From an uncultured Pirellulales bacterium (GTDB taxonomy: Bacteria; Planctomycetota; Phycisphaerae; Sedimentisphaerales; Anaerobacaceae): a DNA stretch of 64,000 nt. A program made the position numbers and the translations under genes. The notes below the pieces were generated by a model that did not search any database, was not told the origin of the DNA, and saw only the letters and a list, made by a program, of their open reading frames with translations. The stretch covers positions 2,572-66,571 of the forward strand of contig CAZBWE010000001.1 in the NCBI GenBank assembly GCA_964495465.1, given 5' to 3'. Shown here piece after piece: positions 2,780 through 18,695 of this stretch (its first letter is position 1; every line of letters starts with the position of its first letter).

Positions 2780-3808
2780 CTATTCGTAGTTCACCAACAC
2801 ACTTTTTGCGACACCCTCGCTTATAACCTTATCCCCAACAAGAGCATTCACAGACTCAACCATAGTTACCATTCCGTGTTTTTTACCCGTTTCGATTATG
2901 CTTCGCAGGAAAAATCCGCCCTTTCTCCTTATAACATTTCTTGCAGCAGCGGTCGTAACCAGCACTTCGCACGCCACTCTCTGCCTTCCATCAATGGTGG
3001 GAAGCAATTCCTGATGAATTACGCCCTGCAGAGATTCGGCTAGGAGAAACCTTAACTGGTTTTCATCGGTAGCAGGAGCGTAGCTTATAAGTCTTTCGAT
3101 AATCTTGTCGATTGATATAACATGCAGGGTGGAAAGAACCAGGACGCCTGTTTCTGCGGCGGTTAAGGCAATCTTAATTGTTTCATAATCTCTCATCTCG
3201 CCTATAGCAATTATATCAGGGTCTTGTCTTAAAGCCGCCCTTAATCCGCTATAAAACGATTGAGTATCCCTTCCAACCTCCCTTTGCCTCACCATTCCGG
3301 TTTTGTTGGTATGCACATATTCGATTGGGTCTTCAATCGTAATAATATGTTTTTCACAGGTTGTATTTACCTCATCCACCATTGCCGTCATCGTGGTAGT
3401 TTTGCCCTGACTGGTGCTTCCTGTAATCAATACCAATCCTTTTGTCCTGTGGGCTAAATCCCTGACAATATCAGGAAGAAACAGCTCCTGGATTGTTTTG
3501 GGTTTTGTCGGAAGGATTCTGAGAGTAGCGCCTACACTACCGTTAAAGTAACCGACGTTTATTCGATACCTGCCGCTTTCATCCGCCAGCATCAAATCAT
3601 AATCAAGGTTTTGCTCAAACCGACTTTTCTGGTCCTCCGTCAGCAGCTCCAGCGATATTTCCCTGCTTTGCTCAGCAGTCAAATTTTCTTTTGTAATTGG
3701 AACTAATTTACCCCCCACCCTGAACAAAATTGGAGCACCCGCGCAAATATGTATATCAGTGGCTTGTTGCGTTTTGGCGTGTTCTAATAATTGTTTTCTG
3801 CTTATCAC
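2780..3808 (-). CDS. pilT: PilT-type (retraction) secretion ATPase
   Basis: 342 aa. Motifs: Walker A variant GSTSQGKTT, Asp box ITIEDPIEYVH, Walker B DPDIIAIGEMRD, His box LSTLHV. N-terminus DIHICAGAPILFRVGGKLVPI. The GTG start overlaps the upstream stop (GTGA). Confidence 0.85.
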   Translation of the reverse strand: MISRKQLLEHAKTQQATDIHICAGAPILFRVGGKLVPITKENLTAEQSREISLELLTEDQKSRFEQNLDYDLMLADESGRYRINVGYFNGSVGATLRILPTKPKTIQELFLPDIVRDLAHRTKGLVLITGSTSQGKTTTMTAMVDEVNTTCEKHIITIEDPIEYVHTNKTGMVRQREVGRDTQSFYSGLRAALRQDPDIIAIGEMRDYETIKIALTAAETGVLVLSTLHVISIDKIIERLISYAPATDENQLRFLLAESLQGVIHQELLPTIDGRQRVACEVLVTTAAARNVIRRKGGFFLRSIIETGKKHGMVTMVESVNALVGDKVISEGVAKSVLVNYE

Positions 3809-4185
3809 AACCCGATTCTTAATTTATTTTTCGAGCTTTTGGTTTGCCTCGCCCTGCTGCACAACGTATTTATCCGAACCTCTTTCTCTTCATTTAAAGG
3901 CGCACTTACAATCACACTCAAAGCTGCCGACCGGACGTCCATATCAGTAATATCCAATTCTACGGCCTTGTCAAGGATTTTACCGCCTTCGTCCCTGATA
4001 TTTCTTTTTGTCCAGGCCAAGCCGCTCACGACCAAGTTGCGCTCAACGGCCTGGAGATAGGCGGTATCCGCCTGGAAGAGCATAGTATTCGAGCCGCCGG
4101 CCAAAACGAACATCTCGAGTCCGACTATAGCAATCGCCAGTATTACAATTACCAGAACAAAACCATTTTGTTTTATTTTTTTCAT
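3805..4185 (-). CDS. Minor pseudopilin-like protein (GspK-like N-terminus without Glu+5)
   Basis: 126 aa. The N-terminal segment KQNG/FVLVIVILAIAIVGL resembles a class III signal but lacks Glu at +5. It is the last of three small genes in the pseudopilin position of the operon. Confidence 0.5.
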   Translation of the reverse strand: MKKIKQNGFVLVIVILAIAIVGLEMFVLAGGSNTMLFQADTAYLQAVERNLVVSGLAWTKRNIRDEGGKILDKAVELDITDMDVRSAALSVIVSAPLNEEKEVRINTLCSRARQTKSSKNKLRIGL

Positions 4186-4187
4186 CT

Positions 4188-4709
4188 TTACTTAAAAGCT
4201 TCTCCCAAAGCACCCACAAAATACAAATGAGAATTTGCCATTTTCTTCTCCCAATGACCCCAAACCTCATGCTCTATATGGGTCCTAACCTGCACAGCAT
4301 AACCTTTGCCGTTTTCTCTCCAGACCTGCCATTGCACCTTAGCGTGCGGCACCGACCAGACTCTGGTATCTTCGCCTTCGCTATCATCCGTAGATATTAT
4401 GTTGCGCCTAAGCACTTTGTCATCCCTTATCTGATAACTAATCACGCCATCTTTCATCTCAATTAAAAGAAGCTCTTCATTTGCAGTACTCTCACCAAAT
4501 GACGCCGGCAGCCCTTTGGCAGCGTCAACATCCTCACGCATCCGCTCCAACATATTAAGCAGGGTCGTATTTGTCTGCATAACACGATATGACCGTGGAA
4601 CATCGGTTATAACTGTGCTAAATAGACCGGCCAAAGCAAACGAAGCAGCCGTAAGAACAACCATCACAGCCAATAACTCTGCCAGCGAAAAACCCCTGCG
4701 CATATTCAT
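4188..4709 (-). CDS. Prepilin-type N-terminal cleavage/methylation domain protein (pseudopilin)
   Basis: 173 aa. MNMRRG/FSLAELLAVMVVLTAA has Gly-1, Phe+1 and Glu+5 followed by a hydrophobic helix. Confidence 0.8.
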   Translation of the reverse strand: MNMRRGFSLAELLAVMVVLTAASFALAGLFSTVITDVPRSYRVMQTNTTLLNMLERMREDVDAAKGLPASFGESTANEELLLIEMKDGVISYQIRDDKVLRRNIISTDDSEGEDTRVWSVPHAKVQWQVWRENGKGYAVQVRTHIEHEVWGHWEKKMANSHLYFVGALGEAFK

Positions 4710-5101
4710 TGCTCCTCACCAGATAAGGATTTATCTTCTAAAATATATCTGCTTAACTTTACCTGCACCTGTCTATTAAAGCTCCTGTCGCGAACTGCGA
4801 CTTCCACTAATTTGAGCCCCTGCCATTGACCGGTTCCGGGTGATTCCTGAATTGAAACAGTCAGTTTAGGCCAAAGCTGTTCAAAGTCTTCGTCATTAAG
4901 TGGCTTTCCTCTCTCAGTTATGCTCTCAAGCTGCGCCTGGGCTGCTGCTATACAACGCTGCCTTACGAGCTGGTAGTCGTTAAACCTCCTGAAACCATCC
5001 AGTGATACTGCAAAGCCGACCAAAAGAACCCCCATAACAGCCAATGCCGCCATCATCTCGGCAAATAAGTAGCCACGATATCTATTGTTCTTATCAAACA
5101 C
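4706..5101 (-). CDS. Prepilin-type pseudopilin
   Basis: 131 aa. NRYRG/YLFAEMMAALAVMGVLLVG has Glu+5. GTG start with GGAG about 8 nt upstream, and a 4-nt overlap with the next gene. Confidence 0.7.
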   Translation of the reverse strand: MFDKNNRYRGYLFAEMMAALAVMGVLLVGFAVSLDGFRRFNDYQLVRQRCIAAAQAQLESITERGKPLNDEDFEQLWPKLTVSIQESPGTGQWQGLKLVEVAVRDRSFNRQVQVKLSRYILEDKSLSGEEQ

Positions 5102-5117
5102 AATTTTGCTCCATTTA

Positions 5118-6587
5118 TTACGGTGTTACAAGCCCTGTCAGAATATAAATAACTTTAATACTCGGGGAAAATATTGCGAAAATTACAAATCCCACCATTG
5201 TCCCCATAATAAGCGTTACACAAGGCCACATTATATATCTGGCAAGATTGATACGGTAACTGTAGTTCGAGCGATAAAATGATTCGAGCATCTCTAATAT
5301 CGTTAAAGTATTGCCCTGGTTTACCTGCTCATCAAACGCCCACGCCAAAGTAGTGCCTATTCCTTCTCCTTTAGCTGAAACCGAAATATTTTCACCGCTT
5401 TGGACCTTATCCAGCCAATTTTTCAGTCTTTTTCTAAAACGATTATTCACATCCAGACCAAGTGTATTAGCGATGGCATCGTTTACTGTGCAGCCGGCGT
5501 TAAGCGACAGCCGCAAAAGCTCAATCACCTGTACCATAGAGTAATTTCTCTCAAACCAGTGCAGAATCGGCAAGTGCCATTTAACAAAATCGCCAAATCG
5601 CGAAAGTAAATATGGCTTATCCGGCCGACGAGGCCTAAACCTGACATAAATCGAAACAGGGATAACTATAGTAACTATAGCTGCGGCTACCAATCCGAAC
5701 AGCCAGCCATATCTAAATGCAATAAAATTCGAAATTTCACATAAAAATTGAGTAGCAGCAGGAAGTCTTGCACCTTCAGTCATTTCTACCATAACATCGC
5801 TGAAAACAGGAACAACCTTCCAAACCAATACGAATACTATAAAGAACATAAAAGTTATTAATAACACCGGATAAAACGGATGAACCGGCCTGATTTTCAT
5901 TCTCTCATCAGCACGAACTGTCATATCTGCTTCAATCGCACCGATTGCCTGCGGAAGCTGGTCAATCCGCTCAGCGGCAGCTATCATTGCCATTGCATAA
6001 CCCGGGCATTTTGGATAGCCCCGCTTGATAGATTCACTTAATGAATATCCCTGAATGAGCCATTTTTTTATTCTCTGCAATATTTTCGAGCGCTTGTCCT
6101 TTCGTCCCCCTGCTGCTGTTTCGAGAGCCATCGGCAAAGGCAGATTCTGCCGCATACTCGAACCTATTGTCGAAATAACGTATGCGGCAACTGCATGGCG
6201 CGATGTCAGACCATAGATTATAATTGCACCTATAAACAAAATAAAAAATCCAAGGCCGATAGCACCTAACGGACCAAACACAATACCCGCGCATACAATT
6301 AGAAGCAGAATAGCGATACCTCTAAGTATCCATTTTGCCCAGAGCCGCGGCCATTCTTCAACATCCGGCTCACGCTTTTGCACTAAAATCATTAACAGAG
6401 TCGTAATGAAGATAACAGGAGCAAATATTCCCCCCCAGAATGTCTCGTCCAAAGCCGCAGCAAAACCCAATAACAAACAAACGATTGGTGACGTAACCAA
6501 AGCAATACCCGGCTTCTTATAACCTAAAACCGCATAAAAAATTAAAATTAAAATCGCTATAATTGTAAACATACTTACACCAATCAT
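5118..6587 (-). CDS. GspF/PilC-family platform protein paralogue with an extra N-terminal multi-TM region
   Basis: Two T2SSF-like repeats are present (ILQRIKKWLIQGYSLSESIK...AMIAAAERIDQLPQAIGAI, and VIELLRLSLNAGCTVNDAIANT...GNTLTILEMLESFY). About 180 aa of extra TM helices precede them. I prefer the ATG at 6587, which overlaps the upstream stop as TGATG, over the ORF-track start at 6719. Confidence 0.7.
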   Translation of the reverse strand: MIGVSMFTIIAILILIFYAVLGYKKPGIALVTSPIVCLLLGFAAALDETFWGGIFAPVIFITTLLMILVQKREPDVEEWPRLWAKWILRGIAILLLIVCAGIVFGPLGAIGLGFFILFIGAIIIYGLTSRHAVAAYVISTIGSSMRQNLPLPMALETAAGGRKDKRSKILQRIKKWLIQGYSLSESIKRGYPKCPGYAMAMIAAAERIDQLPQAIGAIEADMTVRADERMKIRPVHPFYPVLLITFMFFIVFVLVWKVVPVFSDVMVEMTEGARLPAATQFLCEISNFIAFRYGWLFGLVAAAIVTIVIPVSIYVRFRPRRPDKPYLLSRFGDFVKWHLPILHWFERNYSMVQVIELLRLSLNAGCTVNDAIANTLGLDVNNRFRKRLKNWLDKVQSGENISVSAKGEGIGTTLAWAFDEQVNQGNTLTILEMLESFYRSNYSYRINLARYIMWPCVTLIMGTMVGFVIFAIFSPSIKVIYILTGLVTP

Positions 6588-7789
6588 CAGACTCCGCCTA
6601 AAGCCGTAACTACCTGTATCATCGGCAAAAAAATCGAAAGAACCGCCAGGGCTACAAATCCCCCTACCGCGATTATCATAACGGGCAGCAAAACCGCCTG
6701 TAATCTCGCCTGGCCGCATTTTGCCTGCTCAGCATACATCTGTCCGAGACTATAGAGATTGTCCTGTAATTCGTTGCGCTGCGTTCCCAACTGGATGGAA
6801 TACAAAAACAACCGTGGTATCATTCTGCAAAACTGCCCCGCCTCCAAGATATTTGCCCCCTGCTCAATTTGGCCCGCAAGAGCTTCACTTTCCAGGATTA
6901 TTTTGGCACTTCCTGATGCATCTGAAGCTAATCTCAGACAAGCCGGCATATCACAACCAGCCGCGACCATCATCGCCATTGCCTCAGCCATCCTGCCCAG
7001 CACGCTGCTATGATATACCCTCCCTATAATCGGTATTTTCAACAACAATGACTCTTTGAACCTGCGTCCCGCCGGATATCCTGAGAGCATCGATAAGATA
7101 ATAATCAACAATATAACGATAATTACTACTACTATCCAGAAAGGAACTACGTTTCTCGCGATACCGAAGAAGAACAAAGTAAGAGCGGGCATACGTGCAC
7201 CCTCTACCATCTCTGTAAGTATCGGGACAAACTGCGGGATTATAATCAGAAATACCGCTGTTATTACCACAGCAGCCAGAGCCAGAATAACCGCAGGATA
7301 ACACAATGCTTCAAAAATTATCCTCCTGGTTTGATTGGACAGCTCCAGATGCCTGTTCAGACTGGTAAGCATCTCGCTCAATCTCCCTGTTTCCACCCCC
7401 GCCTTTAATATCCGACCATATAAAGGCGGAAAATGCTTTTGTCTCTTTTCAAACGCATCCTCAATACTAACACCGGCCTCAAGCTCTTCAGCGATAGCGT
7501 TGACAAGTTTACGCATAGACTTTGAAGTGACATCGTCTGCAAGCTCTCGCAGGCCTTTCTCCAGAGGAATACCAGCTTTTGTTATTGAAGCCAACTGCTG
7601 ATTAAAAAGCATAAATTCGTTCCTGCCGATGGATGTCTTGGGTCTTGGAGCTTTGGCCTCTTCAATAGAATTTACGGTAAGCTGCATCTGTTTGAGCTGT
7701 TCGCCCACCTCGTCCCGCGAAGCCGCTTCAATAGTGCCTCTCATCAGCCGGCCGGCCGATGTCAGTGCATTATATTCAAACGTCGCCAT
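6587..7789 (-). CDS. gspF: Type II secretion/type IV pilus platform protein (GspF/PilC family)
   Basis: 400 aa with canonical architecture. It starts MATFEYNALTSAGRLMRGTIEA, has two T2SSF repeats (LASITKAGIPLEKGLRELA..., MAMMVAAGCDMPACLRLAS...) and three TM segments. Confidence 0.85.
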   Translation of the reverse strand: MATFEYNALTSAGRLMRGTIEAASRDEVGEQLKQMQLTVNSIEEAKAPRPKTSIGRNEFMLFNQQLASITKAGIPLEKGLRELADDVTSKSMRKLVNAIAEELEAGVSIEDAFEKRQKHFPPLYGRILKAGVETGRLSEMLTSLNRHLELSNQTRRIIFEALCYPAVILALAAVVITAVFLIIIPQFVPILTEMVEGARMPALTLFFFGIARNVVPFWIVVVIIVILLIIILSMLSGYPAGRRFKESLLLKIPIIGRVYHSSVLGRMAEAMAMMVAAGCDMPACLRLASDASGSAKIILESEALAGQIEQGANILEAGQFCRMIPRLFLYSIQLGTQRNELQDNLYSLGQMYAEQAKCGQARLQAVLLPVMIIAVGGFVALAVLSIFLPMIQVVTALGGV

Positions 7790-7823
7790 TTTAAATTTCC
7801 TCGAGCTAAACTTTTAAGTTTTA

Positions 7824-8774
7824 TTATTCCAATTTTAATTCGTATTGTACCGAATCCTCATCAGTTCCTCCTTCCGGAATGGGCCCTTCCAATACTGCCT
7901 GAGTGCCGGCAGTGCTGCGATAAATAAACAGCTTATTTTTTACAGGGTCATCCGGAATGGTTACTTCATTGATTTCTCCGAGATTGTCGGGAAATTTGCC
8001 ATCATGAATAGCTGCGTAGAGACGCAATGCCTCGATGCATTGGAGGACAGCAACGTGACGGTCTAATCTGTTCATTAACAAGCGTATCTTGTTTCTCACT
8101 TCCGGCATTTCCAGTTCTGTCTGTTGGGTCAGGTCGATAAACGGCTTCGGCAAATCCTGCAAGGCCCAATAAAGATTAGGTGCATCTTGCCCTTGAATTA
8201 ACTCCTCCATCTGTTTCAATGTGATTGCAGCCGTTGCTACACCTATCAAGCCCTGGACGAGAGTGGGAGCTTTGTCTAAGTGCTTTGCCATAGCAAAGCC
8301 GGTCTTAATAGTACAAATCGCCTCGTTGTATTTACCCCTAACGATTTGAACCCGGCTCTGCAAAGCAAGGAGGAAAGCCAGCTTTCTATATCCACGAAGC
8401 TCCTCAGTAGTCGTGCCGACTTCCACAGCCGGCCAGTTGCACTGCTTGCATTTGGAAGCCTGTTGGATTAATTGCAGCGTGGGTTTGAGCTGCTGCAGCA
8501 TCGCTTGTGCCTGTTCCTGGGGCAATTTATTCAATGGTTCATGAATCCACTGGTTAATCTGGTCTTCCTGTAAATCTTTGGGCATTGATTGAACCGCTTT
8601 ATTATAAAATGGCACTGCATCCGAATCACTGCATTCACTATCCCTCGGAAGAAACTGATACTTGTCTTTCGGCTCCGGTGCTTTTGCCGGGTGCAGTGTT
8701 AATTCTATCGTGCGAGCGTGCACAGAAACAGCAGCGAGACACAAAACAATAAAGCACCTCAGTTTGCTTCTCAT
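7824..8774 (-). CDS. Secreted protein of unknown function (helical, possibly TPR-like)
   Basis: Signal peptide MRSKLRCFIVLCLAAVSVHA follows the ATG at 8774, with GAGAAAGG upstream. The ORF-track start at 8816 is a GTG that overlaps the ATPase gene. I recognise no motif in the mature part. Confidence 0.5.
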   Translation of the reverse strand: MRSKLRCFIVLCLAAVSVHARTIELTLHPAKAPEPKDKYQFLPRDSECSDSDAVPFYNKAVQSMPKDLQEDQINQWIHEPLNKLPQEQAQAMLQQLKPTLQLIQQASKCKQCNWPAVEVGTTTEELRGYRKLAFLLALQSRVQIVRGKYNEAICTIKTGFAMAKHLDKAPTLVQGLIGVATAAITLKQMEELIQGQDAPNLYWALQDLPKPFIDLTQQTELEMPEVRNKIRLLMNRLDRHVAVLQCIEALRLYAAIHDGKFPDNLGEINEVTIPDDPVKNKLFIYRSTAGTQAVLEGPIPEGGTDEDSVQYELKLE

Positions 8775-8802
8775 AACAAAAGTACCTTTCTCATAAATAC
8801 GA

Positions 8803-9972
8803 TTAAACGATGCCACATACCTTATTCAGTTCTTCCTGTGTCGTAACGCCATCATCAACCAGGCGCTGGCCGTCGGCCAGTATATTCGTATGGCCCCTGC
8901 TCATTAACAGCGCTTCAAGCTCTTCGAGGTCGGCCTTGGCCAAAATGGCTTTTCGCAAATGGCCGTCCAGTTGAACCATTTCCGCTATTAACACCCGGCC
9001 TTTATAGCCGGTATTAAAACAGTCGTCACATCCTGCTGCTTCAAACACACCTGCTTCAACCTGCCTCTTACATTTTGTGCAAAGTTTTCTGATAAGCCGC
9101 TGGTTCAAAACTGCTGAAATACTTGATGTTACCTGATACGGCTCAATTCCCATCTCCAGCAATCGTAAAAGCGCCCCTGCAGGTGCGCCGCTGTGCATCG
9201 TGCTCATTAGCAGATGTCCTGTTAGTCCTGCTTCGATAGCTATCCTCGCAGTCTCAGCGTCCCTAATCTCTCCGAGCATCAAGACCTGCGGGTCCTGCCG
9301 TAACAGCGACCGTAGTGCCATCGGAAATGTCATCTCGCCTCGAGGTGTAATCTGAACCTGTGTAGCTCCTTCAATCCTGATTTCCACAGGGTCTTCAAGG
9401 GTTACAATACTCTTACCTGAAAAATTCTTTAGAATGTGCCTCAAAACAGCAGCGAGCGTTGTGCTCTTGCCGCTGCCTGCCGGGCCGGTCAGGAGCAGGA
9501 CTCCCTGGTTTTGGGCAGCAATTGTCCTCAAAACTGCATAGATTCGCTCTGAAAAACCCAGCTGCCCCAATTCAATAAGCTCAATATTGCTGTAAAACAA
9601 TCGCACAACTGCTCGCTGGCCGTAGATTGTTGGAAAAATCGCCAGACGCTGGTCAATAATCGCACCGGTCTGATCTTTGGTAATCTCAATCCGGCCTTCC
9701 TGCGGAATATCGTTACGATACGTCAGAAGCCCTCCCAATACTTTCAGCCGTGCAATAATATTGTCGGATATGGATTTAGGCAGTTTTTCTACTATGTTTA
9801 AGACGCCATCGAGACGAAATTTTACCACTAATTCAGCCCCCGTTGGCTCAAAATGGACATCACTGGCACCAAATTCCACTGCTTTTTCGAGCAAATCATC
9901 CACCAAAGATACCACATCCTGCGCATCTTTCTTGTGCTCATAAGCTCTGTTATTATAATCACTTACGCTCAT
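8803..9972 (-). CDS. GspE/PilB-family secretion ATPase lacking the usual N-terminal domains
   Basis: 389 aa. Motifs: Walker A GPAGSGKSTT, Asp box LEDPVEI, Walker B QDPQVLMLGEIRD, His box MSTMHS, and the tetracysteine CTKC...CDDC. Confidence 0.85.
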   Translation of the reverse strand: MSVSDYNNRAYEHKKDAQDVVSLVDDLLEKAVEFGASDVHFEPTGAELVVKFRLDGVLNIVEKLPKSISDNIIARLKVLGGLLTYRNDIPQEGRIEITKDQTGAIIDQRLAIFPTIYGQRAVVRLFYSNIELIELGQLGFSERIYAVLRTIAAQNQGVLLLTGPAGSGKSTTLAAVLRHILKNFSGKSIVTLEDPVEIRIEGATQVQITPRGEMTFPMALRSLLRQDPQVLMLGEIRDAETARIAIEAGLTGHLLMSTMHSGAPAGALLRLLEMGIEPYQVTSSISAVLNQRLIRKLCTKCKRQVEAGVFEAAGCDDCFNTGYKGRVLIAEMVQLDGHLRKAILAKADLEELEALLMSRGHTNILADGQRLVDDGVTTQEELNKVCGIV

Positions 9973-10165: not shown

Positions 10166-10735
10166 ATGTTCGATAAGACAGCCAGCTATGGACTTGTTTG
10201 GGATTTGACCGTCTCCGAAGCCATAGACGAAAGTCAGCGTTGGGTATTGTCCACAATGCAAAGGCACGGCCAAGAGTTAGTTACTATGCTCTGGCGAATT
10301 CTGGGCAATGAACAGGATGTTTGCGACGCTTATCAGAATACGTTTCTTCAGCTGGCCCACTACGAAGGAGGGGAAAAACCCGAACATATAAAAGCGTATA
10401 TCTTCCGCACGGCAAACAACGTGGCAATATCGATGTTAAGACGCAGCGTTGCCGAAAGAAACAGGTTGTCAGCAGCAGTCATTAGCACAAAAAACACAAG
10501 CTCTCCTGCAAATGAGCTTGACTCCAAATACCTGCAGGAAAATTTAAGACGATATATAGCACAATTGCCTGAACATTTAAGAAACGTAATAACGCTGCGC
10601 GACCTGGCAGAATTATCTTACACACAGATTGGCAGGATATTGGGAATATCAGCGGCAACCGCGAGAGTCTATAGGTGTAAAGCGATTCAATTATTAGCTG
10701 TATGGATGAGGAAGGAAGAGCAAAAGATACTATGA
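10166..10735 (+). CDS. ECF-family RNA polymerase sigma factor
   Basis: 189 aa. Region 2 (DVCDAYQNTFLQLAHY, IFRTANNVAISMLRR) and region 4 HTH (LRDLAELSYTQIGRILGISAATARVYRCKA) are both present. Confidence 0.85.
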   Translation: MFDKTASYGLVWDLTVSEAIDESQRWVLSTMQRHGQELVTMLWRILGNEQDVCDAYQNTFLQLAHYEGGEKPEHIKAYIFRTANNVAISMLRRSVAERNRLSAAVISTKNTSSPANELDSKYLQENLRRYIAQLPEHLRNVITLRDLAELSYTQIGRILGISAATARVYRCKAIQLLAVWMRKEEQKIL

Positions 10736-11226
10736 AAACTCGCAACTCAAAAAACAAATGCAGACAAATCAGAACTTGGCTGCAGAAAGCCATAAGCAAC
10801 CGAATCAACCTTAATACCGGCTGGATACAAACCCACATTGCAAATTGTCCAAGATGCCAGCAGCGATTAGCTTCGGTCGGTAAAGTTTACTTTGCGCTGT
10901 CGGTTGTGAAATCACAGCCTCATAATCTTGATTTACTAATGCGAGCAAACACACAGGCCATTAGCACTCTGAAACACAGTCTCCAGCAAGCACCAAAAAC
11001 CAAGAAGCTAAAAACAATGCTACCTGAACCGAAACCGATGGAAAGATGTGGCAAGTATGCTCATTCTATAGCGAATGTAGCTGCATGCATTATAATTCTG
11101 CTGCTTATGAAGATTGGTGTTTTTTCCTCTATGGACAAGTTCCAAACCGAAGGCCAAAAAGCCATCAAGCAGTATTATGCCAGCCATATAGGCAAAGACC
11201 TGACAGATGAGATATTCACCGCCTAA
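10732..11226 (+). CDS. Zinc-binding (ZAS-type) anti-sigma factor, single TM
   Basis: The ATG at 10732 overlaps the sigma stop (ATGA). The H-x3-C-x2-C motif is HIANCPRC, and a C-terminal TM segment is VAACIIILLLMKIGVF. Confidence 0.65.
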   Translation: MKTRNSKNKCRQIRTWLQKAISNRINLNTGWIQTHIANCPRCQQRLASVGKVYFALSVVKSQPHNLDLLMRANTQAISTLKHSLQQAPKTKKLKTMLPEPKPMERCGKYAHSIANVAACIIILLLMKIGVFSSMDKFQTEGQKAIKQYYASHIGKDLTDEIFTA

Positions 11227-11577: not shown

Positions 11578-13446
11578 ATGACACGGCTTTTCGGATTCGG
11601 ACTTAAAGAGAATTGGTCTGACGATAACGGTGCTGGTGACTATTACAGCAACAATTCTGCAGAGGAAATCAAAGGGCTGTCAAACCTGTACAGCCCACAA
11701 GAGGAAAGTTCCGTTCATATCCGGGACATCGCCGATGTTCTCTGCGAAACCGGAAAGATTACTTCCGACCAGCTCTCCTATATAAGACAAACCCAGGAAA
11801 AACAACCCGGCTGCGATGTCACCCAAGTAATCCTTGAATCAAAATTAGCTGATGAGCCGGAGATTTCAATGGCTCGAGCGAGCTTGTTTGGATTCGAGTT
11901 TCGCCGGATTGAGCCGGAGCAAGTTGACAACCAGGTATTCGACAAACTTGAACTTAACTACATAAAAAGCAACCACATCATGCCTATAGCTGTAAACGAC
12001 CAAACACTGGTAGTAGCAACAAGCCGACCTGCAGATTTATTTATCATAGAAGACGTGAAAAGACAAACACGGATGGACATCGAGGTGGTCGTATGCTCTG
12101 ATGAAGACATAAACAAAGTCTGCAATGCGTTTGAGAAAGACAATGCCGACTACCGCCTCGATGACATTATAAGCGATATGACGGATGTTGAGGTGATTCA
12201 GGACCAGCAGGAAGAGTCCGAGGACCTCGAAAAAATGGCAGGCCAATCACCTGTTATTAAATTCGTCAATTATCTAATTAGCAACGCTATACATGAAGGT
12301 GCCAGTGACATCCATATCGAACCGAAGGAAAAGTTCACAAGGATAAGATATCGCATAGATGGGGTGCTTTTTGAAACAATGCAATCACCGTCAAAAATGC
12401 ACCCGGCAATCGTATCCCGAATTAAAATTATGGCCAATCTCGATATATCAGAAAGACGGCTCCCACAAGATGGACAAATTTCAGTTATCGTAAGCAGCAG
12501 AGAAATTGACCTGCGAGTCTCAACCTTACCAACGAATCACGGAGAAAAAGTCGTCATACGTATTCTGGACAGTAAATCGATTATAAGAGAGCTTGAGCAG
12601 TTAGGTATGGAGCCGTCGGTATGCACCGATTTTCGCCGGCAGATAGCACTACCTCACGGGATTTTGCTTGTTACAGGTCCTACCGGCTCCGGCAAAAGCA
12701 CAACGTTGTATTCGGCTTTGTGCCAGATGGACAGCGAGAAATTAAATATTTCCACAGTCGAAGATCCTGTCGAACTACAGCTTGATTTTTGCAATCAAGT
12801 GCAAATTAACGAAAAAATCGGCCTAAATTTTGCCTCAGCACTGCGGAGTTTGCTGCGCCAGGACCCGGATGTAATGATGATTGGTGAGATACGTGATAAT
12901 GAGACCGCCCGTATCGCGGTCCAGGCCGCTCTGACGGGGCACTTAGTTCTTTCCACATTACACACAAACGATGCGGCCAGTAGTATTACCCGGCTGGTCA
13001 ATATCGGCATTGACCCCTATCTGATAGCTGCATCACTAAACACAGTGCTTGCCCAGCGATTAGTCAGAAAGATTTGTCCGAAGTGCAAGCAAACTTACCA
13101 GATGCCGGAGAATATGTGGAAACACATAGAAAACTCAGGGGTTCAGCCGGAACAGCTCTTTCATGGTGTCGGCTGTGATTATTGCAGGGGCTCAGGTTAT
13201 TTAGGCAGAGTGGGTATTTATGAGCTGCTGGTCATTAACGATACATTCAGAGATATAATCAATAAAGACTCTTCCGTCAGCAATATACGTCGTGAGTTCC
13301 GTGAAAGCGGCCGGCTGAGTTTGTTCAATGACGGGATTATAAAAGTAAAACAAGGCCTGACAACAATAGAAGAAGTATTAAGGGTCACAGAAGTTTGCAA
13401 CGAACCATCTGAAGCAGGCCGCAATGAAAACGCAAATCCCGGCTAA
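11578..13446 (+). CDS. pilB: PilB/GspE-type assembly ATPase with full N-terminal domains
   Basis: 622 aa. The N-terminal T2SSE_N-like region contains LSYIRQTQEKQ...ARASLFGFEFRRIEPEQVD...IMPIAVNDQTLVVATSRP. Motifs: Walker A GPTGSGKSTT, VEDPVE, QDPDVMMIGEIRD, STLHTND, and CPKC...CDYC. Confidence 0.85.
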   Translation: MTRLFGFGLKENWSDDNGAGDYYSNNSAEEIKGLSNLYSPQEESSVHIRDIADVLCETGKITSDQLSYIRQTQEKQPGCDVTQVILESKLADEPEISMARASLFGFEFRRIEPEQVDNQVFDKLELNYIKSNHIMPIAVNDQTLVVATSRPADLFIIEDVKRQTRMDIEVVVCSDEDINKVCNAFEKDNADYRLDDIISDMTDVEVIQDQQEESEDLEKMAGQSPVIKFVNYLISNAIHEGASDIHIEPKEKFTRIRYRIDGVLFETMQSPSKMHPAIVSRIKIMANLDISERRLPQDGQISVIVSSREIDLRVSTLPTNHGEKVVIRILDSKSIIRELEQLGMEPSVCTDFRRQIALPHGILLVTGPTGSGKSTTLYSALCQMDSEKLNISTVEDPVELQLDFCNQVQINEKIGLNFASALRSLLRQDPDVMMIGEIRDNETARIAVQAALTGHLVLSTLHTNDAASSITRLVNIGIDPYLIAASLNTVLAQRLVRKICPKCKQTYQMPENMWKHIENSGVQPEQLFHGVGCDYCRGSGYLGRVGIYELLVINDTFRDIINKDSSVSNIRREFRESGRLSLFNDGIIKVKQGLTTIEEVLRVTEVCNEPSEAGRNENANPG

Positions 13447-13509: not shown

Positions 13510-14895
13510 ATGCTGAAAAAATTCGCTATCCTCGGTTCAGTACTATTACTTGCCGGCACTGTCGCGCTTGGATGGGTAATTGTCGAGAAAAAAAAAGAAC
13601 AGCGGCAGCTTGCACCTTATAAGCTAAAGTATGGTTCGGAACCGGATGAGTATATCAAGCAATACAATGAGTGGCTGCAACTGGCTCCCGAAGAGCGTGC
13701 TATGACACCCTGGGGGCAGGACGAATCCGGCAATGCAAAAACAGAAGCTCAGCTACAAAATGAACAACAGGAAAGACTCAAAGCTGACCTGGACAAACTG
13801 GCCGCTGGTGAAATCCACCCTTTCGCTGACATTCTTTATGGCGAGAACTGGCAAAACGAATTAAGCAAATACAAAGAGAAAAAGGAGCTAAGGGAGTTTA
13901 TTCTTACCTGTTCTATTGCCTGTACGTTTGCAGGGGGAGCGATTTTTACGTGCTGTTTATTACTATGGTCGTCCCGGCTGTTCCTTTCCACACTTGATGG
14001 TTCGCCGAGAGAATTATTCATCAATATCATCAGAGGCCGAAAAAACAAAAATATAGAAGCATACACAGCCGATTCAATAAAAGTCCGTAAAAATTCAGAA
14101 GCTTTTATAAATCCTGGCCGGCAAAACTACAATACAGATTTTGAAAACCATAAAAAGTCCGCCTGCGAACAGGTTGCTTTTTCGCCGGCAGGTAATACCG
14201 AATCCGGTTTCTGGAACTCAAAACGCGGAAAAGAACACTCGACAATGCCAAAAATTTCCGTGTTGCTTTCCGATGAAAAATCCAGCGACACTGAAAAGAC
14301 TGTTTTGCCGGACTCTCACAAAAATTCCTTAAACTTTGAAGATGCGCTGAATACTCAAACAGAAACCCTGGAAAAACAGATGGATGAATTCAGGCAGCTG
14401 GCCCAAAACATCCAGCAAGCTGCTCTTGAGCATTCAAATCCCCTTAAAAACGCCCTTGGAGAGCTAATGCAGCAAGTGTCCGCAATTCGTGAATACGCTG
14501 CCTACCAGCAGGACAGGGTGGAAAAGCTTCAGGATGGATATGACTGGAACATAATCAGAACTTTTTGCCTGCGTGTTATACGCTGTATTGACAATCTCGA
14601 AAGTCGCATTAGTCGTCTGTCTGAAAAAAATATTGAGACTTTGGACCTTAAGGAAGTAAGAGACGAGCTTCTTTTCGCCCTGGAATCCAGCGGAGTTGAA
14701 CAATTCGAACTCGGAGTAAACAGTGACTATCGGGGGCAGGAAAAGTTTGCAGAGGCAGTTAAAGAAAAGCAGCAATGCGACGACCCGAAACAGGCCGGCA
14801 AAATTGCACAGGTAATCAGGCCCGGCTACCAATATTTTATTAACGACGAAAATATCAAAGTAGTCCGAACAGCCCAGGTAAAGCTGTTCGGTTGA
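13510..14895 (+). CDS. Membrane-anchored GrpE-like nucleotide-exchange-factor protein
   Basis: 461 aa with TM1 FAILGSVLLLAGTVALGWVIV and TM2 CSIACTFAGGAIFTCCLLLW. The C-terminal ~160 aa align by eye to GrpE: VIRCIDNLESRI matches LLPVIDSLDRAL, and SSGVEQFEL...IAQVIRPGYQYF...VVRTAQVKL matches KFGVEVI...VLGIMQKGYTLNGR.IRAAMVTV. Confidence 0.65.
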   Translation: MLKKFAILGSVLLLAGTVALGWVIVEKKKEQRQLAPYKLKYGSEPDEYIKQYNEWLQLAPEERAMTPWGQDESGNAKTEAQLQNEQQERLKADLDKLAAGEIHPFADILYGENWQNELSKYKEKKELREFILTCSIACTFAGGAIFTCCLLLWSSRLFLSTLDGSPRELFINIIRGRKNKNIEAYTADSIKVRKNSEAFINPGRQNYNTDFENHKKSACEQVAFSPAGNTESGFWNSKRGKEHSTMPKISVLLSDEKSSDTEKTVLPDSHKNSLNFEDALNTQTETLEKQMDEFRQLAQNIQQAALEHSNPLKNALGELMQQVSAIREYAAYQQDRVEKLQDGYDWNIIRTFCLRVIRCIDNLESRISRLSEKNIETLDLKEVRDELLFALESSGVEQFELGVNSDYRGQEKFAEAVKEKQQCDDPKQAGKIAQVIRPGYQYFINDENIKVVRTAQVKLFG

Positions 14896-14948
14896 TACGG
14901 AAAATAAACCGTTTTACAGGCGACCTGCGAGAAGATAAGAGGTGTAAA

Positions 14949-16499
14949 ATGGCAAATATAGTAGGCATAGACCTTGGAACGACCTTCTCGGCATTGGCTA
15001 TTCTCAATGCAATCGGCAAACCGGAGATAATCCCGAACGCCGACGGTGAAAGACTCACTCCGTCTGCAATTTTCTTCGATGAAGAGAATCCCGAAATCAT
15101 CAGGGTAGGCATTGAAGCGATTAATTCACGGCACCTGAATGCTCAAAGGTCGGTTCGCTGGATAAAGCGGTATATGGGAGACTCAAACTATAGAAAAAAA
15201 ATTGACGGCAGGGATTGGTCAGCCGTGGAGTTATCCGCTCTGATTCTAAAAAAGCTCAAACAGGAATGTTCAGCCGAGCATGGTGAAATCCGCGATGCTG
15301 TTATTTCTGTTCCCGCCCACTTCGACGAGGTCCGCCGAAAAGCAACAATGGACGCAGGGGCTTTGGCCGGGCTAAACGTAATCGCGATTGTCAATGAACC
15401 TGTAGCCGCTGCGTTATATTATGCCACAACACGCAAGGTCTCAGGAAAAGTCCTCGTATATGACCTCGGCGGCGGAACATTTGACGTAACCATAATGAAT
15501 GTTAAGGGGCATCAAATAGACATTATCTGTTCACAGGGTGACCACGCACTCGGCGGCATCGACTTCGACCGGAAAATACTCGATATACTTCAGCAGAACT
15601 ATAAGGATAAATTCGGCACCGACCTTATTGGTTCCGAAGAAGACAAGGCAAAGTATGAAGATGAGGCAGAGGATATAAAGAAGACACTATCCCGGCGTGA
15701 AACAGCAAAGAAGATGCTTTACGGCCCAGCCGGCAATATGAGAGTGGAAATCACCCGTGAGACGTTTAAAGAAGCTATCTCTTCACTGGTAGCCCGCACC
15801 GAAATCCTGCTGGAAGTGGCTCTCGATGAGGCAGGCATCAAACCATCTGACATCGATAATGTCCTTCTGGTTGGCGGCAGCACTCGAATACCATTGGTCC
15901 AGCAGCGACTTGAAAAAATGTTCGGATTCGCACCCGAAATAACCGTCAACGTAGATGAATGCGTTGCTCTCGGCTCTGCTTTACATGCCGGCCTAACAAT
16001 GCTAAGAGAAAAACCCAACGATGTGCCGGCGGGAATCTCCAGTGGCCTGCAGGATATTAACCTCACAGACGTCTGCAATCACAGTTACGGCACTATATGC
16101 GCCCCTATCGATAAGGAAACCGGACGACGGGTAATTGCCAATCGTATCATCCTAAAGAAAAACACACCTTTGCCCTGCGAAGCATCGCAAATGTTCTACA
16201 CAATGACTGAGGGGCAAACAGAGGTCGAGGCAACCATAACCCAGGGCGAAGATACTGCTGTTGAGTATGTAAACAAGATTGCGACATATAAATTCGAGCT
16301 TCCTCCAAAAAGACCGGCAGGACGACCAATAAAGGTCACTTACAGTTACGACGTAAACCAAAGAATGCACTGTAAGCTCGAGGACCTCGAATCAGGTAAA
16401 GCACTTGAAGTTGATTTCTACTTAGACAAAAATAGTAAAATTACAGAAAATAACGTCACAGAAAAAAACAATCAACCGGAGCAATCCAAAGTTGAATAG
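14949..16499 (+). CDS. Hsp70-family ATPase, short form without the C-terminal helical lid
   Basis: Start MANIVGIDLGTTFSA, with AAGAGGTG upstream. ATPase motifs: DLGGGTFDV and LVGGSTRIPLVQ. The interdomain linker is LTDVCNHSYG. The beta-sandwich SBD ends at about residue 516, whereas canonical DnaK is over 600 aa. Confidence 0.85.
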   Translation: MANIVGIDLGTTFSALAILNAIGKPEIIPNADGERLTPSAIFFDEENPEIIRVGIEAINSRHLNAQRSVRWIKRYMGDSNYRKKIDGRDWSAVELSALILKKLKQECSAEHGEIRDAVISVPAHFDEVRRKATMDAGALAGLNVIAIVNEPVAAALYYATTRKVSGKVLVYDLGGGTFDVTIMNVKGHQIDIICSQGDHALGGIDFDRKILDILQQNYKDKFGTDLIGSEEDKAKYEDEAEDIKKTLSRRETAKKMLYGPAGNMRVEITRETFKEAISSLVARTEILLEVALDEAGIKPSDIDNVLLVGGSTRIPLVQQRLEKMFGFAPEITVNVDECVALGSALHAGLTMLREKPNDVPAGISSGLQDINLTDVCNHSYGTICAPIDKETGRRVIANRIILKKNTPLPCEASQMFYTMTEGQTEVEATITQGEDTAVEYVNKIATYKFELPPKRPAGRPIKVTYSYDVNQRMHCKLEDLESGKALEVDFYLDKNSKITENNVTEKNNQPEQSKVE

Positions 16500-16522
16500 C
16501 AACAACTGAAGGGGGCCAAAAA

Positions 16523-17794
16523 GTGGCAGGTCATTTCAACTATATAAGTCTAATCAGCCCCATCAGGAATTTTCTCTTTCGTATCTCCGACCGGCTCAGC
16601 AATGCCAGGTTAGCGATGCCGCAAAAAGCGAACCTCGAACAAATTGCAGAGCAACCTGTAGCACCGGATATGCAAATCCTTAACTGCCGAGTTCAACTAA
16701 CAAAGCAAAAAAAGGGCGCCTCCGCTTGTGATGCTTTTGCGGTGGAAATCTGCGGCTCAATCCATAATCCCCGTCTTCAAAGCCAAACAGATACAATCCT
16801 GAAAATTTCGATTACAGACATAACAGATGTTGTTCACCAGTTACATAATAAAAACCGACTCTCGCCCAGACATATTTTTGAGTCAGAAGTGTTACAGGAT
16901 AAAGCAATGCCGGTCCACAGTAATATCAAAGAGTGGCAACTGCAAAACTCACCTGTATTTTGCTATAAAACCGACCTTGGCAAACTTCCCAACGAAGTCA
17001 CGACCCTATCAGACTGGACAGTCGCTGCCCGGATACGCCTGGATTGGCTAACATTCCCCCCCAGGGGAAACAGAAACCTGCAATTCAATGTTTCAGTCCT
17101 TTCCCGCAACAGCGGCGACGAGCTCGCTTGTGCCCTATGCACCTTCATCCACGAGAATACCGAGTACGGATATATAGACTTGCAGGAAAATATCCAACGA
17201 GCTAAAATCCTGACGGTCGCATTGGCGTTCGCTGTCAGTGCAGCAGACAAAAAATTATACGATTGCGAAATTGAACTTATAAAAAACTGGGTAAGAGAAA
17301 ATCTCGATACTGTCGGCTCATCTGATAAAGTCAGACACAACTTCGACAAAGCGCTAAAAAAAACCATCACCTTCTTCCAAAATGGCAATCAGCTCAACAC
17401 CTATAAAATTTGCAGAGAAATCGTTGAAATAGCACCAGTCGCAAATCGCTATGATATTTTGGAACTGTGCCTGTATGTCGCTCAGGCCAAGGGTTTTGCC
17501 GCTGCCGAGGAACTTGCCCTGTTGAAGGACCTGGCAAAATGGCTCGAAGCAGATACGGAACGCTTCAATGAAATGACCGAAAGAATCCTTCCCGTCAATA
17601 TACACCAGGTCAAAGATATGGAAGTGATCCTTGGCGTAAATCCGCGTATGGGCAAAGAAAATACCCGCCGGCATCTGAATAAACTATTCTGCAAATGGAA
17701 TTCGAGGGTAACAAATCCCGACCCTGCGATTCAGAACCAAGCCGACCAGATGTTAAAACTCATCGCAGAAGCAAGAAGTCAATATATAGGATAA
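16523..17794 (+). CDS. Three-part protein: unknown N-terminal domain, TerB-like domain, and a C-terminal J-like helical hairpin lacking HPD
   Basis: 423 aa. GTG start with GAAGGGGG upstream; the alternative is ATG at 16616. The TerB-like region is AKILTVALAFAVSAADKKLYDCEIELIKNWV...LELCLYVAQAKGFAAAEELALLKDLAKWL. The C-terminus ILGVNPRMGKENTRRHLNKLFCKWNSRVTNPDPAIQNQADQMLKLIAEARSQY resembles J-domain helices II-III, with NSR in the position of HPD. Confidence 0.55.
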   Translation: MAGHFNYISLISPIRNFLFRISDRLSNARLAMPQKANLEQIAEQPVAPDMQILNCRVQLTKQKKGASACDAFAVEICGSIHNPRLQSQTDTILKISITDITDVVHQLHNKNRLSPRHIFESEVLQDKAMPVHSNIKEWQLQNSPVFCYKTDLGKLPNEVTTLSDWTVAARIRLDWLTFPPRGNRNLQFNVSVLSRNSGDELACALCTFIHENTEYGYIDLQENIQRAKILTVALAFAVSAADKKLYDCEIELIKNWVRENLDTVGSSDKVRHNFDKALKKTITFFQNGNQLNTYKICREIVEIAPVANRYDILELCLYVAQAKGFAAAEELALLKDLAKWLEADTERFNEMTERILPVNIHQVKDMEVILGVNPRMGKENTRRHLNKLFCKWNSRVTNPDPAIQNQADQMLKLIAEARSQYIG

Positions 17795-17813: not shown

Positions 17814-18695
17814 CTAATCCAGAAACTTCTGCAGGACCGCCGCCGTATGCATCGCCAGCAACATAAGATAGTCTAGGTCGCTCAGGCTATAATGCTTGTG
17901 CATCATAGCGTTATCAACATATAACACGCCATAACAGCCGGCTGGTCGGATAATAGATGATATCATTGCAGACCGTATTCTTTCTTTTTCTTCCAAATGA
18001 GCAGCAACCCGGGGCAAAACCATCGATTGACCTTTTTCCAGCGCCTGCTCTATTTTTTCCATAAGTGTAATGTCACCGGCATCTACTGCCTTTCCATCCC
18101 GCCTTTTGCCTGCGTGATAAGTCATTGGGCCGGATGGCTGTTCTCTGAGAGCACACCAGACGTGAAATGCGCTAAACTGCTTTAACATCGTATTCAACAA
18201 AATAATCAACAATTCCTCGAGACCAGCTGCCCCGCAGATTGCCTCGGTCGCCTGTGAAAAATCACTCAATCTCTTGGCGGCTAAACGCATAGCAGGTGCG
18301 TGGCTGGCATCCGGCCTTCTTATTACTGTTTCATGCTGAGGTGTCGTAAGCTCGGCTTCCAGATGAACGGTATCTTCCATATGAATCTCTTCCTCAGTCC
18401 TGCTCTGCTCCTCGAAATCGATCTCGATGCTAAAATTTGTTATACGGAGACAATCACCTGTTTTAATTTCCGCCTTATGAACCGACTTATCATTCAGGTA
18501 TGTTTTGCTCGCAGAATCCAAATCTTGCACCATCCATTTGCCATCATCTGCACATACAATAATCGCATGCTTTCTTGAAACTGTCTTATCAGGCAGGAAA
18601 ATTTTGCTGTCAACCGCTCTTCCAATTGAAATAGGCCCATCATCAAATTGAAACTCTCTGACACTGCCGTCCTTTTGTTTCACAAGCAGATGCAT
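17814..18695 (-). CDS. FHA domain plus GAF-like domain protein
   Basis: 293 aa. FHA core: ISIGRAVDSKIFLPDKTVSRKHAIIVCADDGKWMVQDLDSASKTYLN. The C-terminal ~150 aa are GAF-like (GVLYVDNAMMHKHYSLSDLDYLMLLAMHTA). Confidence 0.75.
   Translation of the reverse strand: MHLLVKQKDGSVREFQFDDGPISIGRAVDSKIFLPDKTVSRKHAIIVCADDGKWMVQDLDSASKTYLNDKSVHKAEIKTGDCLRITNFSIEIDFEEQSRTEEEIHMEDTVHLEAELTTPQHETVIRRPDASHAPAMRLAAKRLSDFSQATEAICGAAGLEELLIILLNTMLKQFSAFHVWCALREQPSGPMTYHAGKRRDGKAVDAGDITLMEKIEQALEKGQSMVLPRVAAHLEEKERIRSAMISSIIRPAGCYGVLYVDNAMMHKHYSLSDLDYLMLLAMHTAAVLQKFLD

Follow-up and report, generated by a model that had tools for sequence, protein, structure and literature searches.

A predicted membrane-associated Hsp70 module with GrpE-like and DjlA-like partners, usually encoded behind a PilB-type ATPase

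Introduction

Beyond DnaK and HscA, the specialised Hsp70s of bacteria have been little explored and were termed chaperone 'dark matter' in a recent review (PMC13580251). Here we describe a set of three adjacent genes (the trio) encoding a membrane-anchored GrpE-like protein, a lidless Hsp70, and a predicted DjlA-like co-chaperone with a TerB domain, found directly behind the gene for a PilB/GspE-type ATPase in a 64,000-nucleotide stretch of contig CAZBWE010000001.1 (assembly GCA_964495465.1) from an uncultured Pirellulales bacterium; "the window" below always means this entire stretch.

The described systems closest to the trio are HscC, DjlA, cyanobacterial DnaK1, and the Myxococcus Hsp70s SglK and StkA. 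HscC is recognised by four features (PMC8215388): DnaK residues 76-101 are missing, a second deletion falls at D211, an insertion lengthens loop L1,2 by 4-8 residues, and the GrpE signature has been lost. DjlA, a co-chaperone of DnaK, consists of a transmembrane (TM) segment followed by a TerB domain and a J-domain (PMC10410713, PMC11709261), and acts at the membrane on a signalling complex controlling capsule polysaccharide (PMC11709261). Two further systems connect Hsp70s with type IV pili. Cyanobacterial DnaK1 binds PilB and Hfq, sits at active motors, and is needed for the motility polysaccharide (PMC9239167). For Myxococcus xanthus, the original prediction from which this analysis started, made by reading the window alone, had noted that sglK lies beside a GrpE paralogue and had taken this as a precedent for a pilus link; the literature bears this out, as sglK adjoins a second grpE, MXAN_6672 (PMC11019930, PMC8265645). 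SglK is of the DnaK class and complements an Escherichia coli dnaK mutant (PMC8265645); the short Hsp70 StkA acts between pili and exopolysaccharide signalling (PMC4319316); and PilB itself is an exopolysaccharide signal (PMC5544727).

No description of the trio was found in the full-text literature, within which the ter-system literature on TerB was covered incompletely. We conclude that the trio belongs among the specialised sets of Hsp70, J-protein, and exchange factor, and appears itself undescribed.

Results

Conservation of the trio

As the original prediction had it, three co-directional and tightly spaced genes follow the PilB-type ATPase: all open reading frames (ORFs) lie on the plus strand, and the gaps from pilB through the third gene are 63, 53, and 23 nt (Table 1). 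The Hsp70 ORF (14892-16499) opens with TTG, and an internal ATG at 14949, which is also the start in public gene calls, yields the protein of 516 amino acids (aa) considered here. No terminator-like site was seen on the plus strand between pilB and the trio, in a promoter and terminator scan that performed at background and carries little weight. In public annotation the Hsp70 is an 'Hsp70 family protein', the GrpE-like product is either hypothetical or a 'nucleotide exchange factor GrpE', and the third product is a 'TerB family tellurite resistance protein'.

Conservation of the trio can be seen at several levels. Specifically, i) genome and assembly look-ups found the three genes in the same order in 9/9 further distinct loci outside the window's organism, drawn from Phycisphaerae, Sedimentisphaerales, Pirellulales, three near-complete genomes, and Kiritimatiellae; ii) in a set of 80 metagenome loci, where each count is taken over informative loci only, the Hsp70 gene adjoins the third gene in 59/59 and the GrpE-like gene adjoins the Hsp70 gene in 43/43; iii) a PilB orthologue with 70-86% identity lies immediately upstream of the GrpE-like gene in 19/25 informative metagenome loci (76%); and iv) PilB is also found upstream in the distant Pirellulales locus L004, and in loci L012 and L014. 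The trio is therefore syntenic in every informative related locus, and both the gene neighbourhood whose conservation the original prediction proposed to test and its pilus-ATPase link are upheld. The sampled loci are mutually related, and because they share ancestry the synteny and PilB counts overstate the independent support.

The Kiritimatiellae Hsp70 is 49% identical to that of the window. There, a gene for a Peptidase_M48 (HtpX-type) protein follows the TerB-J gene by only 4 nt (sister contigs L016 and L017; 6301-7458 in L017), which hints at a link with membrane-protein quality control in Kiritimatiellae. One of the two contigs, L016, carries two tandem 513-aa Hsp70 genes within the module (3814-6907) and L017 has one; the pair may be a true duplication or may have arisen in assembly. 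A tblastn search with E. coli DnaK, DnaJ, and GrpE against about 1 Mb of fetched loci returned the module's own Hsp70 only, and no canonical DnaK set was found within the window.

The Hsp70 lacks a lid

The Hsp70 has the features that define the superfamily: a catalytic nucleotide-binding domain, a conserved linker (INLTD where DnaK has VLLLD), and a beta substrate-binding domain (SBD-beta) that can be aligned to DnaK, here with an enlarged L1,2 loop and followed by a short, unconserved tail. The Pfam HSP70 match (PF00012; 351 bits) covers profile positions 1-514 of 599, and solved DnaK structures can be aligned up to about DnaK residue 508, the end of SBD-beta, beyond which some 25 unconserved residues remain. 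Because the Pfam match and the structure alignment both end after SBD-beta, we regard the protein as lidless, that is, without the helical SBD-alpha. Relatives of this Hsp70 (n = 120) are strikingly uniform, with about 80% identity and a length of 516 aa in almost every case, and at 221 of the 516 positions at least 98% of the sequences agree.

Residues were compared with those of E. coli DnaK, with positions checked in the alignment. The catalytic residues K70, P143, E171, D194, and T199 (DnaK numbering) are invariant, so that both halves of the earlier description, intact ATPase motifs and no lid, are confirmed; at two other positions Q378 is replaced by H and D481 by N. The prediction was also right that this is not a canonical DnaK: the NCBIfam DnaK equivalog model scores 354.8 bits, far below its cut-off of 648, the lid is missing, and R167 has been lost (see Discussion). 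Overall, these features suggest an ATPase that is functional but specialised. We also observe that the substrate-binding domain of the Hsp70 (aa 375-475, approximately) contains Cys and His residues that are invariant in the family (DVCNH, TIC, LPC, MHC), of which E. coli DnaK has only His485.

The GrpE-like protein is predicted to be anchored in the membrane

The product of the first gene runs from TM1 through a conserved loop of about 100 aa, TM2, a variable linker, and a coiled coil to a C-terminal GrpE-like domain. TM1 (Kyte-Doolittle 19-residue mean 2.36) is found throughout the family and TM2 (mean 2.02) in most members. With 27.1 bits the C-terminal domain exceeds the Pfam GrpE (PF01025) cut-off of 25.8, in a single stretch that takes in profile positions 8-162 of 165, and orthologues score 29.4-38.2 bits with E-values down to 1.5e-9. 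These results agree with the prediction of two TM helices and a GrpE-like C-terminus, and profile searches likewise place the third protein in TerB, as had been expected.

Across Planctomycetota the GrpE-like protein is about 50-60% identical over its full length, N-terminal part included. Its C-terminal motifs are strongly conserved, and the loop between the TM helices contains eight invariant residues (R89, A92, D93, L97, L109, Y110, G111, and W114). This loop would face the periplasm, because the GrpE-like domain must reach the cytoplasmic Hsp70. The corresponding first gene in Kiritimatiellae encodes a protein of only 267 aa without TM helices, which hhalign nonetheless aligns to the GrpE-like domain with E = 7.5e-22. 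The GrpE-like protein, too, has invariant cysteines (TFCLRVIRC).

The third protein combines TerB with a cryptic J-domain

The full-length AlphaFold2 model of the third protein (pLDDT 77.8) comprises a disordered N-terminus, a beta-sandwich domain, a helical TerB domain, and three C-terminal helices. The predicted TerB-like domain is borne out by Pfam (PF05099; aa 230-351, 36.3 bits against a cut-off of 24.4), and pLDDT in this region is mostly 84-96 per 10-residue block, with dips to about 70. The beta-sandwich is kept across the family, and a Foldseek search with the full-length model gave just weak, generic matches to Ig-like beta-sandwiches. A library-wide profile search recovered 391 family representatives at E < 1e-30, the best 150 of which all align over the same N-domain, TerB, and tail regions.

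The C-terminal tail escapes standard annotation: Pfam DnaJ (PF00226) has no match in the window protein, and a PDB sequence search with the whole-family profile matched nothing. Diverse representatives nevertheless share the tail motif LG[IV]...M....R..L..EY.KWN.RVT[H/N/S]xD, in which KW-N-x-R-V-T is almost invariant, and the loop that follows, [H/N/S]-x-D, has H in 62/124 sequences, D in 102/124, and an exact T-H-P-D or N-H-P-D in 20/124. Modelled by itself, the tail (pLDDT 83) folds into three helices, with the loop V-T-N-P-D between the second and the third; helix II is long, exceeding that of canonical J-domains, and N-P-D stands at the start of helix III. The best 12 Foldseek matches of this tail model in the PDB are all J-domains (TM-score 0.56-0.67, probability 0.87-0.99, rmsd 2.1-3.7 A), among them the J-domain of DnaJ as seen in its complex with DnaK (5NRO); the accompanying E-values are weak because the query is short. 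Consistent with the structural matches, hhalign of the tail from diverse representatives against 8 J-domains gives E = 1.3e-4 over 56 columns, with [H/N]-x-D aligned on HPD, whereas the same comparison using close relatives only (Neff about 2) is uninformative (E = 0.08, 21 columns); and one relative has a sub-threshold Pfam DnaJ match at the tail (E = 0.029). We therefore accept that the tail is predicted to have a J-domain fold and conclude that the third protein is, on its model, DjlA-like, with TerB followed by a cryptic C-terminal J-domain. No co-variation was seen between His or Asn in the J-loop and Hsp70 position 167, and none can be visible because the members examined all have G at this position, except for A in the window's locus.

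The original prediction held that every component is tethered to the membrane. This is clear for the GrpE-like protein with its TM helices, but in the window the N-terminus of the third protein is just weakly hydrophobic (best stretch 0.72), and the sub-clade to which it belongs lacks a strong TM helix; most relatives do have one (74/119 close relatives and 86/124 representatives, or 62-69%). The third protein has invariant cysteines at C55, C297, and C316 and a near-invariant one at C206. The invariant Cys and His residues of the Hsp70 and its partners could bind metal or be redox-active, as would be in keeping with a TerB partner.

The PilB/GspE-type ATPase and the wider neighbourhood

The PilB-type ATPase matches Pfam T2SSE (472.6 bits) and MshEN (59.8 bits), and falls slightly below the NCBIfam cut-offs for both GspE (616.5 bits, cut-off 630) and PilB (616.6 bits, cut-off 676). 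A neighbouring PilT-family ATPase (NCBIfam/Pfam; 363.9 bits, cut-off 319.1) favours a pilus-type system as the probable setting of this PilB/GspE-type protein. The PilT-family gene belongs to a divergent minus-strand block that also encodes a pilin-like protein, two platform proteins of the PilC/GspF type, a 330-aa unmatched protein, and a short GspE-like ATPase; since the block includes both a PilT-family ATPase and a pilin-like gene, we take it to be a type IV filament system.

The short ATPase (8803-9972, minus strand; 389 aa) is a second GspE/PilB-like protein without N-terminal domains, and its gene overlaps that of the 330-aa protein (7824-8816, minus strand), for which no family match was found. 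The same pair of genes occurs beside two platform proteins in L014, where the whole arrangement resembles the window: two platform genes, the unmatched gene, the short GspE-like ATPase, an ECF (extracytoplasmic function) sigma factor, an anti-sigma-like gene, and pilB. The sigma and anti-sigma-like pair is a partly conserved context, present in L014 and in 5/13 informative metagenome loci; an anti-sigma role for the 174-aa protein is suggested by its position, a CxxC motif, and a hydrophobic helix.

Downstream of the trio, 18/33 metagenome loci as well as L003, L009, L011, and L014 carry genes for a BamB-like PQQ beta-propeller, a GT4 glycosyltransferase, an ABC ATPase, and an FtsX/MacB-type permease of about 1100 aa. 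This block is missing from the window, where an FHA-GAF gene and folate genes are found instead. The FHA-GAF signalling gene, named in the original prediction as flanking the module, is not a conserved neighbour: it lies near the trio in just 2/33 metagenome loci, and we rejected it as a part of the module.

Several features elsewhere in the window may be recorded here. A DDE-type transposase gene (DDE_5 / DDE_Tnp_1; 21828-23132, minus strand) lies between folate and haem-synthesis genes, and is overlapped almost fully by an antisense ORF of 444 aa (21876-23210, plus strand) that is probably not a gene. A 438-aa protein (36529-37845, plus strand) has an unusual architecture, in which TPR repeats accompany the C-terminal domain of RNA polymerase alpha, present twice. 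Both a fused SecDF of 1229 aa (40911-44600, plus strand) and a beta-helix protein of 1033 aa carrying Chlamydia PMP repeats (53201-56302, plus strand) fit an organism of the Planctomycetes-Verrucomicrobia-Chlamydiae (PVC) group.

Table 1. Positions in the window of the trio, its domains, and the genes around it
Feature	Position	Strand	Basis
Membrane-anchored GrpE-like protein, 461 aa	13510..14895	+	ORF
TM helix 1 of GrpE-like protein, aa 4-26	13519..13587	+	Kyte-Doolittle
TM helix 2 of GrpE-like protein, aa ~130-162	13897..13995	+	Kyte-Doolittle
GrpE-like domain, aa 279-458	14344..14883	+	Pfam GrpE
Lidless HscC-like Hsp70, 516 aa	14949..16499	+	Pfam HSP70, alignments
Predicted DjlA-like co-chaperone (third protein), 423 aa	16523..17794	+	AlphaFold2, Pfam TerB, family search
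Predicted beta-sandwich N-domain of third protein, aa 54-212, with disordered insert aa 105-126	16682..17158	+	AlphaFold2
TerB domain of third protein, helices aa 217-355	17171..17587	+	Pfam TerB, AlphaFold2
Predicted variant J-domain of third protein, aa 362-423	17606..17791	+	AlphaFold2, Foldseek, hhalign
Extension ATPase of the PilB/GspE type (622 aa) with MshEN N-domain; next gene upstream of trio	11578..13446	+	Pfam, NCBIfam
ECF sigma factor (189 aa); putative anti-sigma factor (174 aa); both upstream of pilB	10166..11226	+	Pfam Sigma70_r2, r4_2
Divergent type IV filament genes (context)	2780..9972	-	Pfam, NCBIfam
FHA-GAF gene, convergent, after trio	17814..18695	-	ORF, Pfam

Discussion

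A dedicated Hsp70 machine at the inner membrane?

We propose, with a probability of roughly 0.55, that the trio forms a dedicated Hsp70 machine on the cytoplasmic side of the inner membrane, whose target would be a pilus motor, its platform, or a coupled process. In such a machine the lidless, HscC-related Hsp70 would be an ATP-driven clamp; the DjlA-like co-chaperone, which in most relatives has an N-terminal membrane anchor, would recruit and presumably trigger the Hsp70; the GrpE-like protein, held by two helices flanking a conserved loop, would tether the Hsp70 and may reset it; and the client or regulatory target might be the PilB motor, the platform, or a coupled process such as envelope or polysaccharide export. 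A pilus-related target suggests itself because the operon usually starts with a PilB-type ATPase and lies beside type IV filament genes; by analogy, such a link would parallel both the cyanobacterial DnaK1-DnaJ3-GrpE system and the SglK and StkA proteins of Myxococcus. Seen together, the changes on both sides (R167, D211, and D477 lost from the Hsp70; an insertion and an altered HPD in the J-domain) suggest an interface that is re-wired and exclusive. The analysis shows the domain identities, the J-domain fold, the HscC-type indels, the strict gene order of the trio, and its frequent linkage to PilB; from these we infer the membrane topology, physical contacts, ATPase stimulation, nucleotide exchange, and pilus-related role.

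A number of observations weigh against this proposal. In comparison with DnaK, R167 is G in the relatives and A in the window Hsp70; the loop bearing D211 is deleted; D477 is replaced by S; the cleft salt-bridge residues K55 and R56 have become I and N; and the GrpE-signature loop is shorter by 7 residues. In DnaK, residues R167, Q378, D211, and D477 touch the J-domain (PMC8215388), and because R167, D211, D477, and the salt bridges are lost and the GrpE-signature loop is cut, canonical J-stimulation and GrpE dependence may not apply. Nor is classical exchange-factor activity assured, since the Hsp70 is without the DnaK features that confer GrpE dependence; the earlier claim that the trio supplies a complete Hsp70 cycle thus stands in so far as chaperone, GrpE-like, and J-like domains have all been identified, but not for exchange-factor activity of the classical kind. 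PDB sequence searches, whether with the family profile or with a single relative, matched no solved GrpE, and hhalign of the GrpE-like family against E. coli GrpE was negative as well, so that Pfam is the sole source of the GrpE homology. The J-like C-terminus seen in the original prediction is sustained as a fold by AlphaFold2, Foldseek, and hhalign but departs from the canonical motif: in the window the J-loop K-W-N-S-R-V-T-N-P-D has N-P-D rather than H-P-D, displaced by a 5-residue insertion after KW, and in canonical systems a His-to-Gln change abolishes J-domain function (PMC8215388). Finally, PilB is missing in 6/25 metagenome loci, in L002, L011, L013, and L015, and in the Kiritimatiellae loci.

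The last point bears on a broader role. Since the trio is also found without PilB, in several loci, and stands beside an M48 (HtpX-type) peptidase in one lineage, the Kiritimatiellae, it is plausible that it is a general chaperone for membrane-protein quality control or envelope stress, comparable to HscC with DjlB and DjlC or to DjlA with DnaK and without a particular tie to pili, and that its position behind pilB is inherited gene order. Such a role would also suit the BamB-like propeller, GT4 glycosyltransferase, and ABC/FtsX genes that lie downstream in 18/33 loci, as well as the indels that the Hsp70 has in common with HscC, which works with membrane J-proteins (PMC8215388). We consider it somewhat unlikely all the same, for PilB adjacency spans Phycisphaerae and Pirellulales, with gaps of about 20-70 nt and in 76% of informative loci, and an Hsp70 conserved at about 80% with dedicated partners suggests a narrow, fixed client set. 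The altered interfaces raise a different question, namely whether the Hsp70 is a regulatory switch or scaffold of the kind proposed for StkA or yeast Ssz1, with the GrpE-like and J-like partners serving as structural anchors rather than catalysts. An Hsp70 that has no lid, has G or A for R167, and has lost D211, D477, and the cleft salt bridges would be in keeping with this, as would the shortened GrpE-signature loop and a J-loop in which His is Asn in the window and missing from half of the family; we think it quite improbable, however, when the catalytic residues of the nucleotide-binding domain are all invariant, when the J-loop Asp is kept in 102/124 sequences and KW-N-x-R-V-T is near-invariant, which fits a co-evolved and still functional interface, and when the C-terminal motifs of the GrpE-like protein are strongly conserved.

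TerB domains are part of the ter genes for stress and phage resistance, and both TerB and Hsp70-like ATPases are known in anti-phage or conflict systems, so that the trio might be suspected of being one. Phage defence has been speculated as a role for the TerB-like domain (PMC11709261), PADLOC gave no match for the trio proteins or the FHA-GAF protein, no effector-like domain is present, and the trio is highly conserved in one fixed gene order within a stable housekeeping or envelope neighbourhood. A defence role thus appears very improbable, and we rejected it for want of a PADLOC match and in view of the stable, vertically conserved synteny.

Going further than a dedicated machine at the inner membrane, one might add the trio to DnaK, HscA, and HscC as a fourth class of Hsp70 machine in bacteria, one that would relay an envelope or periplasmic signal to the PilB motor or would remodel PilB or its platform. 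The lidless Hsp70 would then be held between the TM GrpE-like protein, its loop in the periplasm, and a DjlA-like partner with a re-wired J interface, where the Hsp70 has lost R167 and the J-domain has gained an R-V-T insertion and an altered HPD. We regard this fuller version as unlikely, and offer it tentatively.

Significance

The trio should be useful as a defined three-gene set with extreme Hsp70 conservation (about 80%) and a hidden J-domain that standard annotation misses, and also for its testable interface changes (R167 lost, HPD loop altered and shifted) and its recurrent operon link to a pilus-extension ATPase. Since the chaperone, both co-chaperones, and PilB are encoded together, the question of how Hsp70s and pili are connected becomes directly testable. 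Were the trio indeed a fourth class of machine, it would give a direct molecular handle on the unexplained coupling between Hsp70, pili, and polysaccharide in cyanobacteria and myxobacteria. For annotation, entries in PVC bacteria labelled 'TerB family tellurite resistance protein' are predicted to be Hsp70 co-chaperones.

Comparison with known systems

We compared the window Hsp70 with HscC (taken from the E. coli K-12 genome) and E. coli DnaK in a three-way alignment. The window Hsp70 and HscC have in common a deletion of DnaK residues 77-104 (approximately), a 4-residue deletion that removes D211, an L1,2 insertion, and the LTD linker; the window Hsp70 is like HscC, too, in missing the DnaK-type cleft salt bridges and in having a shortened GrpE-signature loop. 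Both are specialised Hsp70s rather than heat-shock DnaKs, and the J-protein partners of HscC (DjlB and DjlC) are membrane-anchored. Yet the window Hsp70 is only 32% identical to HscC, no better than its 33% identity to DnaK; HscC keeps a lid, shortened by a 9-residue deletion in helix B, and is 550-580 aa long, whereas the window Hsp70 is lidless at 516 aa; HscC retains R167 where the window family has G or A; HscC has no GrpE partner, whereas the trio includes a dedicated GrpE-like gene; and the J-protein of the trio is of the TerB type with an N-terminal anchor, in contrast to the tail-anchored DjlB and DjlC.

The third protein resembles DjlA in the order of TerB and C-terminal J-domain and, in most of its relatives, in an N-terminal TM helix. 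It differs in i) a beta-sandwich of about 160 aa ahead of TerB; ii) a predicted J-domain that has a 5-residue insertion, a loop of the form [H/N/S]-x-D instead of a strict HPD, and no Pfam DnaJ match; iii) its pairing with an Hsp70 of its own rather than with the housekeeping DnaK; and iv) in the window, the lack of a strong TM helix.

Cyanobacterial DnaK1-DnaJ3-GrpE is likewise a non-housekeeping Hsp70 system tied to PilB. DnaK1, which we compared by description only, is nevertheless an annotated DnaK homologue that uses the cell's single annotated GrpE (PMC9239167), and its link with PilB is physical and regulatory, not operonic with pilB. SglK and StkA, for their part, are Hsp70 paralogues that are needed for, or regulate, pilus-dependent social motility and exopolysaccharide, but they have neither a TerB/J partner nor a membrane-anchored GrpE, and their neighbouring genes are different from those of the trio.

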